Assembly (NCBI GenBank): GCA_041655595.1
Contig: JBBAFB010000002.1
Location: 1 to 64,000 of the forward strand
Direction: 5' to 3'
Origin: Bacillota bacterium
Lineage (GTDB): Bacteria > Bacillota > DULZ01
DNA length: 64,000 bases
Positions 5,540 to 34,974 of the stretch are shown here, piece after piece. How positions within the stretch are numbered: position 1 is the first letter of the stretch; the number at the start of each line of letters is the position of its first letter. The notes below the pieces were generated by a model, which saw only the letters and a program-made list of their open reading frames with translations, was not told the DNA's origin and made no database searches. Position numbers and translations under genes: made by a program.

Positions 5540-5614
5540 TCCTCGGTAGCTCAAAGGTGGAGCATCCGGCTGTTAACCGGAGGGTTGTAGGTTCGAATCC
5601 TACCCGGGGAGCCA
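5540..5614 (+). tRNA. tRNA-Asn (GTT)
   Basis: Cloverleaf with acceptor tcctcgg/ccgggga, anticodon loop cuGUUaa, T-loop GGTTCGAATCC and a 3' CCA. Confidence 0.85.
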
Positions 5615-5680
5615 TTATTGATAAGACAGTGACTAGTAACTACTTAGCTGCTAGTCATTTTTAACTGATAATCCTTTCGT

Positions 5681-5754
5681 GGGCCCATAGCTCAGCGGTA
5701 GAGCCGCCGGCTCATAACCGGCTGGTCCCTGGTTCGAACCCAGGTGGGCCCACC
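5681..5754 (+). tRNA. tRNA with CAT anticodon (elongator Met or lysidine-modified Ile2)
   Basis: Acceptor gggccca/tgggccc, anticodon loop cuCAUaa, T-loop GGTTCGAACC, CCA end. Met cannot be distinguished from Ile2 by eye. Confidence 0.8.
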
Positions 5755-5767
5755 ATTTATTTTACTT

Positions 5768-5842
5768 GGCCCGTTGGTCAAGCGGTCAAGACATCGGCCT
5801 TTCACGCCGGTAACGGGGGTTCGATTCCCCCACGGGTCACCA
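5768..5842 (+). tRNA. tRNA-Glu (TTC)
   Basis: Acceptor ggcccgt/acgggtc, anticodon loop cuUUCac, T-loop GGTTCGATTCC, CCA end. Confidence 0.85.
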
Positions 5843-5848
5843 TGATGC

Positions 5849-5924
<76 letters not shown>

Positions 5925-10147: not shown

Positions 10148-10226
10148 AAGATGACAAAAAGACGAAGATGACAGCAGAAGATGACAGCAGAAGATGACAG
10201 GGGAAGATGACAGGGGAAGATGACAG
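10148..10226. repeat. imperfect tandem array (~6 copies) of a 13-nt unit containing GAAGATGAC(AG)
   Basis: aagatgacaaaaagacGAAGATGACagcaGAAGATGACagcaGAAGATGACaggggAAGATGACaggggAAGATGACagggggg, lying between convergent genes. Confidence 0.9.
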
Positions 10227-10327
10227 GGGGGCGGGGGTTTTGATGCATTATTTAGATGACTGGGTATGTATCTACCCTAGGAAGGTGTTAAAACCTCCAT
10301 CCCCCCGTCATTCCAGTGAATAGATGG

Positions 10328-13101: not shown

Positions 13102-13267
13102 AACCCTGCAAGATTTTATAAGATATTTTAAAATTAAATTTTATCCACAGAGCCTTACCGGAGAACCTATATTTATGAATCATAAAGCTATATTATTTTA
13201 AACCCCCAATTTGACTATGTAACCCGACCATGTTAAAATAATTAGTAGCATAAGCGGCTAATTAATT

Positions 13268-13689
13268 GAGTAAATCAGATGATCGCGGATACCGGTCCGA
13301 AAGGTGGTATCTGAGGAAAGTCCGAGCTCCGCAGGGCAAAGTGCTGGGTAACACCCAGTGGGGGCAACCCTAAGGAAAGTGCCACAGAGATATACCGCCT
13401 GGCACTCAGCCAAGGATTTACGCTCAAGCTACAGAGAATGTTTTTTAATTTATTTGTTATTGTGGTGTAAATGCTTTGCTGAGTGCCAGGTAAGGGTGAA
13501 AAGGTGAGGTAAGGGCTCACCAGCAACCAGGTGACTGGTTTGGCTAGGTAAACCCCACTTGGAGCAAGACCGAATAGAGGAACACAAGAATGGCCCGTTC
13601 AGTTCCCGGGTAGGTCGCTGGAGGCAGTTGGTAACAACTGTCCTAGATAGATGATCATCCAAGACAGAACTCGGCTTATAGATTTGCTC
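13268..13689 (+). ncRNA. rnpB: RNase P RNA, bacterial type A
   Basis: P4 signature GAGGAAAGTCCGAGCTCC, plus GGGCAA..GTAACACCCAGTGGGGGCAACC, ACAGAGA, GGTAAGGGTGAAAAGGTGAGGTAAG, GGTAAACCCCACTTGGAGCAAGACCGAATAG and GAACTCGGCTTATAG, all aligning to the E. coli-type consensus. The P1 stem pairs gagtaaatc (13268-13276) with gatttgctc (13681-13689). Confidence 0.9.
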
Positions 13690-13708
13690 AATTTAATTTT
13701 AAAAATTA

Positions 13709-20599: not shown

Positions 20600-20617
20600 T
20601 AGGTCAATATGTGAAAC

Positions 20618-20872
20618 CAATGAGCGGGAGCAGTAGAAATAATGATTTGTATCAAGAGAGTCGTCGGTTGGTGGAAGGCGATTACAATAATTATTTTGAA
20701 TGGACCTGTGAGGGAGGCCCGAAACCTTAGGGAAGTAGGCGCCTACGGAATCCAAAGCCGTTATTAATGGAAGGTATAGTTGCTATACAAAACAAGTGGG
20801 CATTTTGCCAATTTGGGTGGTACCGCAGGAGCTAAAGCTTTTGTCCCTATTTTTGGGATGAAAGTTTTTTAT
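20618..20872 (+). promoter_or_regulatory. T-box riboswitch leader, Trp-specific (specifier UGG), controlling trpBA
   Basis: Stem I begins AATGAGCGGGAGCAGTAG..AGAGAG. Specifier loop is ggTTGGTGGAagg (UGG-A at 20672-20675). Conserved T-box core AATTTGGGTGGTACCGCAGG at 20808-20829. Terminator is aaagcttttgtccc/gggatgaaagtttttt. Confidence 0.8.
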
Positions 20873-25549: not shown

Positions 25550-25709
25550 TAGAATCGGTGTTTGTTTTGCTACTGTCTTTTGAAAAGGGAAGGAGCTTTT
25601 AAAATTTCAGGAAGGAATAACCATTATCTTTCTGCTTTTTCTTGCATAATCCACTTCTTTCTACCTCATACTAGTTTTAGCTTTAACAATTATAAAAGGA
25701 GTGGATTTC

Positions 25710-26270
25710 ATGAACTTTCAAATTCAGCAGCTGGAATCTAGGATTAGTCAACTGCAGAGGGAATTATCTAATCTCAGCAGTCAAATTCATCAAATCTCTT
25801 CTCTGGGTTCATCCTATTCAGGTTCCTCAGGTATGGCAGGGGGGATGGGAGGCTTTGTAGGCGGTTCCGGTTTTGGAGGCAGCTCCGGAATTGGTAGCAG
25901 CCCTTGGTCGGGTTCCTCCCAGGGTTTCCCCGGCAATGTGGCTTCCTTTACACCTCCACAAAGCGGCAAGGCGGGTGTTGGTGACTTTGGTGACCAAAGC
26001 TACAAGGGCCCGGGCATGGGTCAAAGCTGGGAAAGTGGTTACATGGGTTCTAGCCATTACGGGGGTTATCCCGGTAGCGGTATGAGCGGAAGCGGCGGCG
26101 GTTTTGCCGGCGGCTTTAGCGGCAGTGGTTTTGGGGGCGGTGGTATTTCTTCCAACATTGCAACTCATACCAGCCCCAGTCCCTTGGCAGGCAGTGTGGT
26201 AGATTCACCCTTGGGCAGGCAAGATTACGGCATTGGCGGCGGTCAATCCCACAGATTAGGACAGTATTAA
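25710..26270 (+). CDS. Gly/Ser-rich low-complexity protein with N-terminal coiled-coil (possible spore coat/exosporium component)
   Basis: MNFQIQQLESRISQLQRELSNL, then long GSGFGGSSG/GYPGSGMSGSGGG tracts. SD AAAGGAG 8 nt upstream, with a strong terminator after the gene. Confidence 0.55.
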   Translation: MNFQIQQLESRISQLQRELSNLSSQIHQISSLGSSYSGSSGMAGGMGGFVGGSGFGGSSGIGSSPWSGSSQGFPGNVASFTPPQSGKAGVGDFGDQSYKGPGMGQSWESGYMGSSHYGGYPGSGMSGSGGGFAGGFSGSGFGGGGISSNIATHTSPSPLAGSVVDSPLGRQDYGIGGGQSHRLGQY

Positions 26271-27383: not shown

Positions 27384-28748
27384 ATGAGTAAAAATCATCC
27401 CACCAAAATTATTTTAGAAGAGAGGCAGATGCCTACTCGCTGGTACAATGTACAAGCGGATCTGCCAAATCCACTGGAGCCGCCTTTGAATCCCCAAACA
27501 CAGGAGGTGGCCGGTCCTCAAGATCTGGCAGTAATTTTCCCGGAAGAATTAATTAAACAGGAAGTGTCTCAGGAGCGTTGGATAGACATACCGGAGGAAG
27601 TCCAAAAGCTTTATCACTTATGGAGGCCATCGCCTCTTTATCGGGCATTTCAATTGGAGAAAGCCCTAAAAACACCGGCAAAAATTTATTATAAATACGA
27701 AGGGGTAAGCCCTGCAGGCAGTCATAAGCTGAATACATCAATACCCCAAGCTTATTATAATAAAAAGGCAGGTATTAAAAGGCTGACCACCGAGACCGGT
27801 GCAGGCCAATGGGGAACAGCTCTTAGTTTAGCGTGTAATTATTTTGATATGGAATGTAGAGTGTATATGGTTAAAATCTCCAGTCAACAAAAACCCTATC
27901 GTAAATCCTTGATGGAGGTTTTTGGAGCAACGGTAATTCCCAGCCCCAGTAACTTAACGGAGGCGGGCAGGCAAGTGCTGGCAAAGGACCCGGATAGCCC
28001 CGGCAGTCTGGGAATTGCCATCAGTGAAGCTGTAGAAGAAGCTGCTTCAAGAGAGGACACAAATTATGCCTTAGGTAGTGTTTTAAACCATGTAGTTGTG
28101 CATCAATCTGTGATTGGACAGGAAGCCAAAGCACAGCTGGAGCTGGTTGATACTTATCCAGATATAGTTATTGGCTGCTGCGGCGGCGGTAGTAACTTTG
28201 GGGGAACCGCATTTCCTTTTTTCCCCGATGTGCTGGCGGGTAGAGGGCCCAGATTAATAGCAGTTGAACCGGCGGCGTGCCCCACACTGACGAGGGGTAA
28301 ATTTGCTTATGACTATGGTGATTTAGCCAAGCTAACACCTATTATGAAGATGTATACCTTGGGACATGACTTCATTCCCCCCGGAATACATGCAGGGGGA
28401 TTGCGCTACCATGGGGATTCCCCCTTGGTCAGTCAATTATATCATGACGGCTATATTGAGGCAGAGGCAGTAATGCAAACGGACGTTTTTAAAGCCGCTG
28501 TCCTTTTTGCCAAGACGGAGGGCATTTTGCCGGCACCGGAAAGCGCCCACGCAATTACAACCGCCATTAATGAGGCCAACAAGGCCAAAGAGGCGGGGGA
28601 GGAAAAGGTTATTCTCTTTAACTTAAGCGGCCACGGTCACTTTGATTTAACCGCCTATGATTTTTACCTTGCCGGGGGCATTGAAGACGTGGATTATAAC
28701 GATGATTATGTCAAACAAGGATTAGCTTCTTTACCGGTGATAAAATAA
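27384..28748 (+). CDS. TrpB2-type tryptophan synthase beta-subunit paralog
   Basis: 454 aa containing [16 protein letters not shown] and [10 protein letters not shown]. The length and motifs fit the TrpB2 subfamily. Confidence 0.8.
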
Positions 28749-28762
28749 CAGCAAAAGAAAGG

Positions 28763-28793
28763 ATCATGCTCTCGGAGCATGGTCTTTTTTTTA
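28763..28793 (+). terminator. rho-independent terminator after trpB2
   Basis: gatcatgctcTCGGgagcatggtc hairpin followed by eight T residues. Confidence 0.75.
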
Positions 28794-28826
28794 TTAGCCC
28801 GGGTACAGCCGCGGCTATTATAATTG

Positions 28827-28858
28827 CAATAGTCTTGCAATGTATTGCAAGACTATTG
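28827..28858. repeat. perfect 15-bp inverted repeat (caatagtcttgcaat-gt-attgcaagactattg)
   Basis: Read directly from the sequence. Neither strand has a following U-tract. Confidence 0.9.
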
Positions 28859-28896
28859 TCCAAACAAAAAACAAATTTACAAACCATTTTCCCCTT

Positions 28897-28975
28897 CCAC
28901 CTCCCACCTCCCACTTTCTACTTTCTACTTTCTACCTTCTACCTTCTACTTTCCACTTTCCACTTTCCACTTCCC
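28897..28975. repeat. heptanucleotide microsatellite (~11 units of CYACYTY: cacctcc / cactttc / tactttc / taccttc)
   Basis: Tandem 7-mer array in the intergenic region, which the ORF track translates into two overlapping repetitive ORFs. Confidence 0.9.
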
Positions 28976-29208
28976 CCGACAACCAACAAGAAATATTTAA
29001 AAAAATCCCTACAGCTACCCAATCATTTGCCAAAAGGCAAATATTTTGCAACGAAGTTGTGATAATTTAATATATGTAATACATTTGCAATGTTTGGGCA
29101 ACATTTTTTAATTTATAACATTTTAACTGGAGGTGGTAAATGCTTGATAAAGGTTTTTCCTAACTATGGAAAAGTGTTTTAAATTGATTTTGAAAGGAGC
29201 TAATTTGC

Positions 29209-29937
29209 ATGAAAAAGGATTTTACTTCCCCGGTAAAAGGGTTGTTGATTACTGCCTTGGCAGTGGTGTCAATTTTTACCCTGACAGGTGGTATTGGCAC
29301 TACTTGTGTTGCATGGAATGCAGCTAATTTGGGGCCATTTGCGGTAATGGTTCCTTATGCACCGTTTTATAAATCAATGGTTGTAGTTAATATTTTGGTA
29401 GGTCTTGCTCTATTTATTATTACTTACGCCTTTGTCCGTTCCGAAAAATGGGCATATAATGCCGCACTCATTACCTTGTTTATCGGTGGCGGCTCTGGCC
29501 TGGTAAAAATGTATATGTCCCAAACCATTAGGGGAGGCACAGCCCCAACGAATGTGCGCGTATATTTTACACTTGCCGCCTTAGTTATTTTCTTAATTGT
29601 CAGGTTGCCCTTCATTTGGAATAGAATTGATTTGGCTAAAAAACCCGAGGGTGAATCTTCTTATGTTATTCCCACAGGAGTTGCTTTCCTGGTAGGCGGA
29701 ATAAGCCAGCTTGCCATTACCCTTTTTGCAATGCCTTCCCACATAGTTGAGGGCGTAAATTACGTAAATTATCTCGCACCTCAGTTTTACGCGATCAGCG
29801 GTATCTTAATGGCTGTTGGTGCAGGTCTGCTACTGACGGTAAAATTAAAATTGAATTTGGATGCACGCATTGCCTCTGTTGTCAAATCTATTTATAATGT
29901 ATTTGTGTCATCAAAGGAAGCTAAGGAGTTTAAATAA
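29209..29937 (+). CDS. integral membrane protein (hypothetical, ~6 TM)
   Basis: Hydrophobic helices throughout; SD GAAAGGAG upstream. Confidence 0.5.
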   Translation: MKKDFTSPVKGLLITALAVVSIFTLTGGIGTTCVAWNAANLGPFAVMVPYAPFYKSMVVVNILVGLALFIITYAFVRSEKWAYNAALITLFIGGGSGLVKMYMSQTIRGGTAPTNVRVYFTLAALVIFLIVRLPFIWNRIDLAKKPEGESSYVIPTGVAFLVGGISQLAITLFAMPSHIVEGVNYVNYLAPQFYAISGILMAVGAGLLLTVKLKLNLDARIASVVKSIYNVFVSSKEAKEFK

Positions 29938-30015
29938 GAGGTAAGGGAAGGGGCATGGTAGGATGGTTCTGCTAGGCCCCTTTTCTCCGGGTAGATCTGG
30001 TGATCAAGGAAGGCG

Positions 30016-30561
30016 GTGGTAGGCTTGGATGCACAAATTATTAAATGGGAGATAACTGGCTTTTTTGTTATTTTTGTTGTTGGTGCCGCTTGGCATTTCT
30101 TTTACAGTTCAACCGGTGTTCAGTTGATTGGACTTATTTCCCCTGTAAATGAAAGTGTTTGGGAGCATTCAAAAATGGGGACATATCCTATTTTGATTTT
30201 TTCTATCATAATGGGTTTTTATTTTAAAGAACAGATTCCTCACTTCTGGGCTGCTCAAGCTATTGCTATTTACTCGGTTCCTATAATTATGATAGGGCTT
30301 TTTTACTTTTACACTTTTTTCACCGGACATCATATTTTGGCAATTGATATTTCGATTTTTGCAATTTGCATAGCCTTGGCTCAGTGGTTGAGCTATAAGC
30401 TTTTAACAGGACAGCTTAACCCGGTAATTTCTCCGTCTGTTGCTTTAGCATCAATCGCTGTTCTGGTATTAGTCACCAGTTATTTCACTTATTTTCCACC
30501 CAAGGTGCATTTATTTTTAGATGCTACCAATGGGACATATGGAATAAATCAGGTAAAATAG
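30016..30561 (+). CDS. integral membrane protein (hypothetical)
   Basis: Five or six hydrophobic helices. Followed by a bidirectional terminator. Confidence 0.45.
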   Translation: MVGLDAQIIKWEITGFFVIFVVGAAWHFFYSSTGVQLIGLISPVNESVWEHSKMGTYPILIFSIIMGFYFKEQIPHFWAAQAIAIYSVPIIMIGLFYFYTFFTGHHILAIDISIFAICIALAQWLSYKLLTGQLNPVISPSVALASIAVLVLVTSYFTYFPPKVHLFLDATNGTYGINQVK

Positions 30562-32377: not shown

Positions 32378-32467
32378 ATGAAAAAATCATTTTTAATTGT
32401 AGGTTTGGTGGCAGCGGCGGTAATTGCATACCTCTTGCTTTCACTGCCTATTTTTCAAGGGTTTTAG
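32378..32467 (+). CDS. 29-aa hydrophobic micropeptide (MKKSFLIVGLVAAAVIAYLLLSLPIFQGF)
   Basis: Not in the ORF track because it is under 60 aa. ATG lies 3 nt after the upstream stop, with the SD AGGAAAGGTGA. Single predicted TM helix. Confidence 0.4.
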   Translation: MKKSFLIVGLVAAAVIAYLLLSLPIFQGF

Positions 32468-32624
32468 CTTTTTAAAGCGGAAAGCCGGTAACGGCCGGCC
32501 CGGATGATAGAGGACCGGGACGGAAGGGGCTTAAGGTGTTCTTTTCTTTGCTTGTTTTCTAATTGATGCGTAGTTTCCGAAAAAAACTATAAAACAGAGT
32601 TGCGATTCAAAGGGGAAGGTAAGG

Positions 32625-34307
32625 GTGGCGAAAACCAGTTTTTTTAATAAGTTGAGCGTTCGCTTGTCCATTAATCTGGCAATTATTGTTCTGGTGGTTT
32701 CTCTGACTAATTTCCCCTGGATCTCCGAACGCTTGAAATTAAACCTAGAGTGGGAGCTGGCGGAAAAAGCTAGGGTGGCCACCTCTTTGTTTGTAGAGAC
32801 CAGATTTTTCCCGGGGGGAAATGATTTGAATAATGGCCCTATTGCTGATTGGGTAAGGGTGGCGGATTTTAAACACAGAACTGTTTCAGCGACGGAGCAG
32901 TCCATTAATAAACTCTACAAAGAAAAATCCTGGTTGTTTAACGAAATCCTATTTGATACCGGCCGGGTTGAGTCCCTCCCCACTGCGACACTTGCTTTAG
33001 TGGAGGAGTTTATAAAAGACCCCGAGGTTCAAGAAGTTTGGGATATCCGAACAAGTGCCAAAGAAAAAATGTTTTACTATTTTGCCCCGGTACGCGTGGA
33101 GGAATCCTGTTTAAGTTGTCATGGAAGTGAAAACACTTTTGCCTCCTTTGAAGGGATACCCACCTACACCCGGGATCAGCTGCTTGGTGTGATTGGGCTG
33201 GAGATGCCTATGTTTGCTCAAAACAAAATGATTAAAATGGAGCTAACATTGCAGATGGTGTTTATTGTTCTAATGCTGACCTTAATTGCCTTTGCAGTTT
33301 TTATCTTTGTGCAGAGGGCAGTAGAGCAGCCGCTTAACAAGTTGATATTGGTAGCCCAAAAATACGGGCAAGGCCATTTAGATAGTCCTTTTCCCAAGAT
33401 CAATGCACCGGCAGAAATAGAGCTGATGGCTGAGCAGTGGTTCGCTATGACTGAGCGGCTAAAGGGTTTTTATATTGACCTGGAGCATCAAGTTAAAGAA
33501 AGAACCGCTAAATTAAAGGAAGCCAACAGAACCTTGGAGGAGCAAAAAAGGGAACTGGAGGAAGCCAATAAAATAAAATCGGAGTTTTTGGCCAGCGTCA
33601 GCCACGAGCTGAGAACACCCCTAACTTCAGTTATTGCTTTTGTGGAGTTGTTGTTAGAAGGTATTGGCGGGCCTGTTAACGAACAGCAAAGAGACTACTT
33701 AGAAGGCGCTTTGCGGGGCAGCCATCGTTTGGAGGATTCAATCAATGATTTATTAGATATGGCAAAAATTGAGGCAGGGAATGCCAGCCTTTACCCTACT
33801 TATTTTTCCCTTGAGGATCTGGTTTTGGATTTAGAAAAAAGGCTGCATTCCTTGATTTTAACAAAAAGAATTGATTTCAGAATTGAGTTAGCAACTGGGC
33901 CGGAGAAAATTTACGGGGACAGAGAAAAAATAGAAAGGATTTTGCTGAACCTGCTCAGCAACGCCGTTAAATTTACTCCCGTTGGCGGCATGGTCTCCAT
34001 TAAAGCTGAAACAAATGATCAAGGGCTGGTTGTTCAGGTTAAGGATACAGGTTTGGGCATTAAAAAGGAGGACCAACAATATATATTTGATGCCTTTAGG
34101 CAAGTGGACGGCTCCACAACAAGAGCATACAAGGGTACTGGTCTGGGCTTGGCAATTGCTAAAAAATATGTAGATTTACACGGAGGTTTTATCTGGGTTG
34201 AAAGTGATTTAGGCAAGGGCTCGACGTTTTATTTCACCATACCTAAAGAGGGGATAGAAACGGAGGTGGTTAAGGATGGAACAGAAAAAGATTTTGGTAG
34301 TGGATGA
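32625..34307 (+). CDS. sensor histidine kinase with extracytoplasmic CxxCH (c-type-haem-like, DUF3365-like) domain
   Basis: N-terminal TM, then a periplasmic domain with ESCLSCHGS. Second TM, coiled coil, HisKA (SHELRTPL) and HATPase_c (N-box LLSNAVKFT, G-boxes DTGLGI and GTGLGL). Confidence 0.8.
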   Translation: MAKTSFFNKLSVRLSINLAIIVLVVSLTNFPWISERLKLNLEWELAEKARVATSLFVETRFFPGGNDLNNGPIADWVRVADFKHRTVSATEQSINKLYKEKSWLFNEILFDTGRVESLPTATLALVEEFIKDPEVQEVWDIRTSAKEKMFYYFAPVRVEESCLSCHGSENTFASFEGIPTYTRDQLLGVIGLEMPMFAQNKMIKMELTLQMVFIVLMLTLIAFAVFIFVQRAVEQPLNKLILVAQKYGQGHLDSPFPKINAPAEIELMAEQWFAMTERLKGFYIDLEHQVKERTAKLKEANRTLEEQKRELEEANKIKSEFLASVSHELRTPLTSVIAFVELLLEGIGGPVNEQQRDYLEGALRGSHRLEDSINDLLDMAKIEAGNASLYPTYFSLEDLVLDLEKRLHSLILTKRIDFRIELATGPEKIYGDREKIERILLNLLSNAVKFTPVGGMVSIKAETNDQGLVVQVKDTGLGIKKEDQQYIFDAFRQVDGSTTRAYKGTGLGLAIAKKYVDLHGGFIWVESDLGKGSTFYFTIPKEGIETEVVKDGTEKDFGSG

Positions 34308-34974
34308 CGAAGAGGATATAGTAAAAGTTATTGAACACCGATTGTCTAAGGAGGGGTATAGGATTATCACAGCCGGAGACGGTGAGGAAGCCCTGTGGCT
34401 ATTCCAGCGGGAACGGCCTGATTTAATGATTCTTGATTTAATGTTGCCAAAAATTGATGGATTTGAGGTCTGCAGGTTAATTAGAGAAAAATCTGATGTG
34501 CCCATTATTATTTTGTCGGCAAGAACAGATGAGTTGGACCGTTTGCTGGGTTTTCGAATGGGTGGGGATGATTACATGACCAAACCATTCAGTCCATCTG
34601 AACTAGCCCTTCGCGTTAAAGCCATTTTTAGGCGGATGTCCGGTGTAGAGTCGGCTAATAAAACTGCTTTTGACCTAGTTAAGCAAAAAGGGTTGGAAAT
34701 TAACCCTAACAACTACACGGTAACCTTGGCTGATAAGGAGGTTCAACTGACTCCCAAGGAGTTTAAACTGCTTTGGTTAATGGCTTCTCAACCAGAATAT
34801 GTATTTAGCCGCGAGCAGTTGCTGGAGCAAATTTGGGATAGCGATTCCGTGAAAGATGCCGACAATGTAACGGTTATGATCAGCCGTTTACGGGATAAAA
34901 TAGAGGAAAACCCCGGTAACCCCAGCTATATTAAAACAGTGTGGGGTGCTGGTTATAAATTTTCCAGCAGCTAA
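34276..34974 (+). CDS. OmpR-family response regulator
   Basis: REC domain (KILVVDDEEDI...LMILDLMLPKIDG) plus a winged-helix C-terminus (LTPKEFKLLWLMA...VWGAGYKF). Confidence 0.85.
   Translation: MEQKKILVVDDEEDIVKVIEHRLSKEGYRIITAGDGEEALWLFQRERPDLMILDLMLPKIDGFEVCRLIREKSDVPIIILSARTDELDRLLGFRMGGDDYMTKPFSPSELALRVKAIFRRMSGVESANKTAFDLVKQKGLEINPNNYTVTLADKEVQLTPKEFKLLWLMASQPEYVFSREQLLEQIWDSDSVKDADNVTVMISRLRDKIEENPGNPSYIKTVWGAGYKFSSS

Follow-up and report, generated by a model that had tools for sequence, protein, structure and literature searches.

The spacer upstream of a small membrane-protein operon in an uncultured Moorellales bacterium is crowded with repeats, and it raises the question of which of them, if any, serve the regulation of the operon. 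The spacer was analysed as part of a 64-kb stretch of DNA (the window, denoted W in all comparisons between lineages), which also carries dnaG-sigA, DegS and chemotaxis and flagellar genes, confirming that it is a Firmicute chromosome region. The gap comprises 460 bp, from the stop codon at 28748 of a TrpB-like gene (trpB2, 27384-28748, matching NCBIfam PRK12391) to the next ATG at 29209. From left to right it contains the intrinsic terminator of trpB2 (28754-28792, + strand; an 18-bp stem followed by T8, −21.8 kcal/mol), a perfect inverted repeat (IR), an A-rich stretch, 11 heptamers, GCAA-cored palindromes and repeats set in AT-rich sequence (29025-29101), a mini-ORF and, at its right end, the Shine-Dalgarno (SD) sequence and ATG of the membrane-protein gene. 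Given the A/T-rich run on the opposite side of its stem, the terminator may act in both directions. The operon itself (29209-30561, + strand) encodes a 242-aa multi-pass membrane protein (29209-29937), for which no Pfam match was found, followed by a DUF6512 protein. The initial annotation had suggested that the repeats act as an operator array, as a phase-variable simple-sequence repeat or as an RNA element; its coordinates proved correct except for the last small palindrome, which lies at 29089-29105, about 10 nt to the right of the approximate position given.

The history of the gap is best described as having two parts, a reading to which we assign a probability of roughly 60 %. The proximal part would be a promoter/operator block of the operon, and the distal features would be products of replication errors in a fast-evolving spacer. 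Striking intergenic repeats need not be the functional part of a spacer, and comparison with sister lineages shifts the regulatory signal at this locus to a plain-looking block of 77 bp.

The family of the membrane protein is very small, with 10 clusters among 5.8 billion proteins, and exact-protein look-ups recovered its relatives. They included the same or near-identical strains (L001 and L003, with partial contigs L002 and L004) and three sister lineages (L006/L007/L019, L005 and L018), the first of which is labelled as an uncultured Moorellales MAG. The comparison set consisted of four related uncultured Moorellales lineages: W, L006/L019, L018 and L005. The full gene order trpB2, gap, membrane protein, DUF6512 is common to W, L006 and L018 and is found on shorter contigs in L007 and L019; the L005 contig starts within the gap. 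The DNA of the membrane-protein gene is 75–81 % identical between lineages and 89 % identical between L018 and L005. More distant homologues of the protein (L008-L015) are non-syntenic and have no 77-bp block. The scan of a genome collection with the block pattern returned a single match (L017), which is L006, the uncultured Moorellales MAG, and a metagenome scan with the left flank of the heptamer array returned one unrelated chance 22-mer match (L016) and no further strains.

The 77-bp block (29025-29101, + strand) has equal length in the four lineages, being free of indels in W, L006, L019, L018 and L005, and is 81–92 % identical. It is more conserved than either flanking gene: identity is 75–89 % in the adjacent gene and 62–85 % in the leader, and the distal spacer of 240–276 bp is only 54–58 % identical, and this includes L018 versus L005, whose genes are 89 % identical. 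The block opens with the 18-bp palindrome ATTTGCC-AAAA-GGCAAAT (29025-29042), kept in the relatives except for a C to T change in L005 and L018; the shorter palindrome TTGCCAAAAGGCAA recognised earlier at 29027-29040 is its core. It overlaps the direct repeat AGGCAA-N5-TTGCAA (29035-29051, + strand), followed by an invariant AT-rich 16-mer, TGATAATTTAATATAT (29060-29075, + strand), with the −10-like hexamers GATAAT and TAATAT, and by a second direct repeat, TTGCAA-N5-GGGCAA (29085-29101, + strand). GCAA is invariant at the four hexamer positions, which form two pairs at 11-bp spacing on the two sides of the 16-mer; the N5 spacer and the first two bases of the hexamers vary. The first pair reads AGGCAA-ATATT-TTGCAA in W, AGGCAA-ATACC-CTGCAA in L005 and AGGCAA-ATACT-CCGCAA in L018, and the second reads TTGCAA-TGTTT-GGGCAA in W, TTGCAA-TAATT-AAGCAA in L006 and ATGCAA-TAAAT-AGGCAA in L005. 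The third small palindrome of the initial annotation exists as AATGTT-TGGGC-AACATT (29089-29105), and since it is not kept as an inverted repeat in the relatives it is, on this comparison, incidental.

The hexamers are also concentrated in the spacer. Five of the 38 copies of TTGCAA in the window fall within the 316-bp repeat region (about 27-fold enrichment), four of the six window matches to GCAA-N7-GCAA lie in the gap (shuffle mean 1.7), and all three matches to KKGCAA-N5-KKGCAA lie in this spacer (shuffle mean 0.09). The layout of OmpR/WalR-type direct repeats (11-bp period, conserved cores, free spacer) was found, conserved in the four lineages, at 29035-29051 and 29085-29101, and in W also at 28824-28840.

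Taken as a whole, the block is conserved and is probably a functional promoter/operator of the membrane-protein operon, in which the two GCAA hexamer pairs flank the AT-rich 16-mer, an architecture that would fit a regulator binding direct repeats on one face of the helix. No clean sigma-70 promoter was called in the block by the promoter scan. The L005 sequence has a strong bidirectional terminator (272-318) downstream of the distal palindrome and about 60 bp before the block, which places the operon promoter within or after the block. The consensus fold of block and leader contained no compensatory pairs, so the conservation lies at the DNA level.

A candidate for the regulator is encoded nearby. 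The genes of a histidine kinase and an OmpR-family response regulator (32625-34974, + strand) lie 3.4–5.8 kb downstream, and the start of the histidine-kinase gene is syntenic in L006; the response regulator (34276-34974) scores below every NCBIfam equivalog cut-off. We infer that this response regulator may bind the GCAA hexamers of the block, and perhaps also the distal palindrome in W. Sites of WalR/VicR-type members of the OmpR family are direct repeats TGTWAH-N5-TGTWAH (PMC4168254). The arrangement described here resembles them in its two hexamers, 11-bp periodicity and free spacer, with several repeats around a promoter and an OmpR-family gene in the neighbourhood, but the core differs (GCAA, in the form KGCAAH) and the operator here is a prediction. 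The hexamer motif was not found as a conserved site upstream of the two-component genes. Its lone match, GCAA-N7-GCAA at 32424 upstream of the histidine kinase, was considered as a sign of autoregulation and rejected, as the match falls within a conserved small ORF for a membrane peptide and is not shared by L006. The comparison yields a putative operator motif of GCAA hexamers spaced 11 bp apart, both for the membrane-protein operon, which is uncharacterised, and for the two-component system in its neighbourhood. The small ORF just mentioned (32379-32468; 8722-8811 in L006) lies between a zinc-ribbon/DUF2007 gene and the histidine kinase and falls short of the cut-off of the ORF list; its product, MKKSFLIVGLVAAAVIAYLLLSLPIFQGF, is a single-pass membrane peptide.

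Between the block and the operon lies the mini-ORF MLDKGFS* (29131-29163, + strand), with a strong SD sequence, GGAGGTGG (29131-29138), and an ATG. All lineages keep the SD sequence; as start codon, W, L006, L019 and L005 have ATG, and L018 has GTG. A mini-ORF with a very strong SD sequence, GGAGGTGGTAAATG, precedes the membrane-protein gene in every lineage (5453-5518 in L006, 487-507 in L005, 5922-5978 in L018), and a mini-ORF with the SD sequence GGGGGTGTTAAATG was also seen before the 47 %-identical homologue L008 (1486-1525), which stands in an unrelated context. The peptides are not conserved (MLDKGFS*, MPIKTKCTLVNGIESN*, MRF* and MTVDYCFKV*), and instead of being a coding gene the mini-ORF may serve as a leader element that loads ribosomes or stabilises the mRNA.

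The distal part of the gap behaves differently from the block. The perfect IR, CAATAGTCTTGCAAT-GT-ATTGCAAGACTATTG (arms 28827-28841 and 28844-28858, 15+2+15), is real and sits exactly at 28827-28858. It is the only perfect IR in the 64-kb window with arms of at least 12 nt and a spacer of at most 6 nt (20 shuffles gave none), and folded as RNA it reaches −20.6 kcal/mol (z = −8.9). The earlier view that it is not a simple terminator holds: no T-run follows it on either strand, and it was not reported by the terminator scan. Its hexamers, TGCAAT-N5-TGCAAT on the + strand (28825-28841) and GACAAT-N5-TGCAAT on the − strand, have the hexamer-N5-hexamer layout of the conserved proximal sites. Directly upstream of the IR there is a lone, perfect TATAAT (28819-28824, + strand) with neither a −35 nor a TG partner, which was not called by the promoter scan and could at most be a weak promoter.

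The IR is perfect in W, imperfect in L018, absent or present as an imperfect remnant in L006/L019 and separately formed in L005. The segment TTGCAATAGTCTTGCAAT of W is homologous to ATGTAATAGTTTTGCAAT of L018 and ATGCAATATTTTTGTAGA of L005, and this ancestral 15-mer forms the left arm of the W palindrome and the right arm of that in L005, where the perfect 15+2+15 IR reads TACAAAAATATTGCA-AA-TGCAATATTTTTGTA and has a different centre. L006 retains a right-arm-like ATTACAAAAACTATTA, and L018 and L006/L019 have imperfect remnants only. Since the same segment serves as opposite arms in W and L005, comparison of the lineages indicates that each of the two formed its perfect palindrome on its own, around a single ancestral quasi-palindromic segment. 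Being thus lineage-specific, the 15-bp IR is, as far as the four lineages tell, not a conserved operator. Of the operator array proposed initially, the promoter-proximal palindromes survive, as parts of the indel-free block, and the distal IR does not.

A palindrome that is perfect in W and L005 and imperfect or decayed at the orthologous site in L018 and L006/L019 is the pattern sought as a sign of template switching. Template switching is known to make imperfect palindromes perfect, and in quasipalindrome correction (the Ripley model, studied with lacZ QP reporters of E. coli) an imperfect inverted repeat is perfected in one step (PMC7202029). The situation in the gap is alike in that imperfect versions occur in the relatives, and the perfect 15+2+15 palindromes of two lineages have their centres on different sides of one segment. 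It differs from the lacZ reporters in that the event is deduced by comparing lineages, and the same pattern could also be the outcome of selection, either for a hairpin or for a site of protein binding. The lineages were also found to differ in the order of terminator and palindrome segment (W 28754-28858 versus L018 5546-5646 and L005 151-318), which indicates that the spacer was rearranged. In W and L006 the trpB2 terminator precedes the palindrome segment; in L018 the segment is upstream of the terminator and would sit in the trpB2 3' UTR, and the same order apparently applies to L005, whose contig stops short of trpB2.

The heptamer minisatellite (28898-28974) bears out the earlier count of about 11 tandem C/T-rich copies: it consists of 11 clean YAC[CT]T[CT]C units of five variants arranged in blocks, preceded by degenerate units at 28884-28897, and TRF reported a period of 7 at 28893-28914 and 28913-28972. 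In register, units 1-7 are CACCTCC (twice), CACTTTC, TACTTTC (twice) and TACCTTC (twice), and units 8-11 are TACTTTC, CACTTTC (twice) and CACTTCC. The array belongs to a 119-nt run free of G on the + strand (28859-28977), A-rich at first and then C/T-rich, which is the only run of at least 60 nt lacking a single base in a window whose + strand is otherwise G-rich. The repetitive proteins predicted by the ORF track over the microsatellite are spurious, as had been suspected, because the sequence covered by the ORFs 28766-29062, 28840-29070 and 28845-29000 is missing from the sister lineages. The variants in W form runs of identical neighbours, a pattern suggestive of local duplication followed by point mutation. 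Identical units never occur more than two in a row, and no 20-mer recurs, so that slippage is now expected to be slow. The first units, CACCTCC CACCTCC CACTTTCTA (28898-28930), were observed to be exact complements of the mini-ORF SD sequence and to resemble the 3' end of 16S rRNA, CACCUCCUUUCUA; this is probably a coincidence in a C/T-rich tract.

In the sister lineages the array varies at one and the same place. L018 has six units at the orthologous site (5741-5782: CTTTCAG three times, CTTTCCG twice and CTTTCAA), 34 nt upstream of the block, as compared with 11 units ending 50 bp upstream of the block in W, and about one unit-like stretch is present in L006/L019 (ACATTTTCCGCTTGAC) and L005 (ACATATTTTCAAATGAC). 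The 3' ends align (CTTTCCACTTCCCCCGACAACC in W, CTTTCCGCTTTCAACCGG in L018, TTTTCCGCTTGACTGA in L006). With 3' ends that line up and copy numbers that differ, the site would represent an old, short seed, which from lineage to lineage either grew to a different length or collapsed. The IR and the array occur in all four combinations (both in W, array only in L018, IR only in L005, neither in L006/L019), and therefore they do not form one functional unit.

These comparisons suggest the following course of events under the two-part reading. The distal spacer, from the trpB2 terminator to the block, would be rapidly turning-over DNA, in which slippage during replication enlarged a short ancestral CTTTCCGCTT-like seed at a fixed site into the array, and an ancestral imperfect palindrome of TGCAAT-type hexamers was made perfect by a template switch, for which TTGCAA, itself a palindromic hexamer, may have served as a foothold. 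The palindrome and the microsatellite are thus best explained, on the comparison of lineages, as young, lineage-specific products of replication errors, and neither of them is required, according to the same comparison. The locus would then be a natural example, in environmental Firmicutes, of independent quasipalindrome perfection and recurrent minisatellite growth at one site. In W the distal palindrome could still act as an auxiliary binding site, with the array setting its distance from the block. It retains three hexamers spaced by 10–11 bp. The distal GCAA cores at 28826, 28837 and 28847 lie 211, 200 and 190 bp from the core at 29037, which corresponds to 20.1, 19.0 and 18.1 helical turns, so a role as an auxiliary operator is possible; the chance of such an in-phase spacing arising by accident is roughly one in four.

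A more ambitious interpretation, which we regard as unlikely, treats the array as a tunable or phase-variable repeat that alters how far the distal palindrome is from the block, and in which helical phase, and thereby switches or grades expression of the operon. The position of the array 50 bp upstream of the conserved block, the copy numbers of 11, 6 and about 1 at the orthologous site and the present helical phasing of distal and proximal hexamers, from which each 7-bp unit would shift them by two-thirds of a turn, are all in its favour. So is a precedent: the hmw1A/hmw2A promoters of nontypeable Haemophilus influenzae carry 9–28 copies of a 7-bp repeat that grade hmwA mRNA levels, more repeats giving less mRNA (PMC2424069). 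The locus described here is similar in having a heptamer array upstream of a gene for a surface or membrane protein, with a copy number that differs between lineages. The hmw unit, ATCTTTC, has the same CTTTC core as the present array. However, the hmw arrays consist of uniform units and differ from isolate to isolate as well as in the course of infection, and the array in W is made of five unit variants with no more than two identical neighbours, which argues for slow slippage, and was found identical in the independent assemblies of two near-identical strains. Also, its place is upstream of the conserved block and not in a mapped transcript leader.

The comparison of copy number across strains, proposed with the initial annotation, went against phase variation: W, L001 and L003 have the same array despite 5 SNPs in 12.7 kb, and copy-number variation was seen only between lineages whose genes are 76–89 % identical. 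The break of a Logan contig (L004) within the array at 28942 was considered as a sign of polymorphism and rejected, as the contigs of that sample are all short. The uncoupling of IR and array across the lineages is a further point against a switch built from both. What remains of the phase-variable repeat suggested at the outset is a CTTTC-core array at the same site with different copy numbers between lineages; its heterogeneous units and its identity in near-identical strains speak against rapid switching, and the data point to evolutionary instability without lending support to rapid phase variation. An array that turned out to vary in length within populations would be one of the rare loci of the contingency type that occur outside host-associated pathogens.

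It can also be argued that recurrent selection, and not neutral mutation, could have put a heptamer array at the same site in two of the four lineages and given two of the four a perfect 15+2+15 palindrome. In its full form, which seems to us rather improbable, both the repeated expansion of the heptamers and the perfection of the palindrome would have been selected, with the array acting as a helical-phase dial of three settings between a distal and a proximal operator of a dedicated two-component regulator. If this were true, an uncultured anaerobic member of the Moorellales would possess a heritable, tunable expression switch for an uncharacterised membrane-protein operon.

Comparably improbable is the proposal that AGGCAA-N5-TTGCA (29035-29050) is a sigma-54 promoter, with the distal palindrome as the upstream activator site and the pyrimidine tract as a looping spacer. 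The likeness to such systems is limited to the exact GG-N10-GC spacing, kept in all four lineages while three spacer bases vary, and to a palindrome about 190–210 bp upstream. Matches to the consensus with two mismatches occur in the window at chance rate (20 found versus 18.5 expected), the bases of the flanking consensus are lost (where a conserved T is usual before GG, every lineage has A, and TTGC is changed to CTGC in L005 and CCGC in L018), and no activator domain was found in the scanned ORFs, which took in every ORF next to the spacer and the majority of the large ORFs in the 64-kb window. The palindrome is unconserved, being absent in L006/L019 and placed behind a terminator in L005. 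Finally, the hexamer pair recurs at 29085-29101 and in the distal IR, and a repeated protein-binding site, as in the promoter/operator reading of the block, fits this better than a single promoter.

The idea that the distal part encodes a lineage-specific + strand RNA, with the IR as a 5' hairpin and the 119-nt G-free, unstructured, C/U-rich stretch as an anti-SD regulator or sponge or a Rho rut site, has very little to recommend it. It could draw on the perfect TATAAT at 28819-28824, on the uniqueness of the G-free run within the window, on a weak hairpin with a U-rich tail at 29025-29050 and on two CCACCUCC units that are exactly complementary to the mini-ORF SD sequence GGAGGUGG and pair with it in the predicted fold. 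Against it, the TATAAT has neither a −35 nor an extended −10 to go with it, and when the gap was scanned for sigma-70 promoters and terminators, no promoter was called on the + strand. The hairpin at 29025 fails the terminator criteria, the stretch is unconserved in all sister lineages and the array of L018 contains G. In the Rfam search over the region nothing reached the gathering score, the best permissive E-value being 0.55, for miRNA models matching the hairpin. With no Rfam match above chance and no covariation in block and leader, the earlier suggestion of an RNA element finds no support.

The view that the IR is one copy of a dispersed REP-like element or mobile-element end, for which perfect palindromes of about 30 bp are typical, can practically be dismissed: a search for further copies of the arm found none closer than 3 mismatches in the 64-kb window, the IR is the sole long perfect IR of the window, and the homologues of its arms in the relatives are single-copy sequence located at this very site. 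TRAP/HutP-type triplet arrays, a minus-strand CsrA GGA-repeat sponge and H-DNA were dropped, judged on sequence alone, because of the wrong period, the interrupted tract, the lack of a minus-strand promoter and the unconserved array.

Several other elements were noted elsewhere in the window. A Gly/Ser-rich low-complexity ORF of 189 aa (25701-26270) adjoins CotF-like spore-coat genes and keeps this position in the sister lineages; its product is possibly a spore-coat or exosporium protein. A class A RNase P RNA (13267-13694), a T-box leader upstream of trpB/trpA (20611-20851) and four tRNA genes (5540-5921) are ordinary. A second intergenic tandem repeat (10164-10229), consisting of five copies of the 13-mer GAAGATGACAG(G/C)(G/A)G with 96 % matching, follows a terminator-like hairpin between convergent genes.
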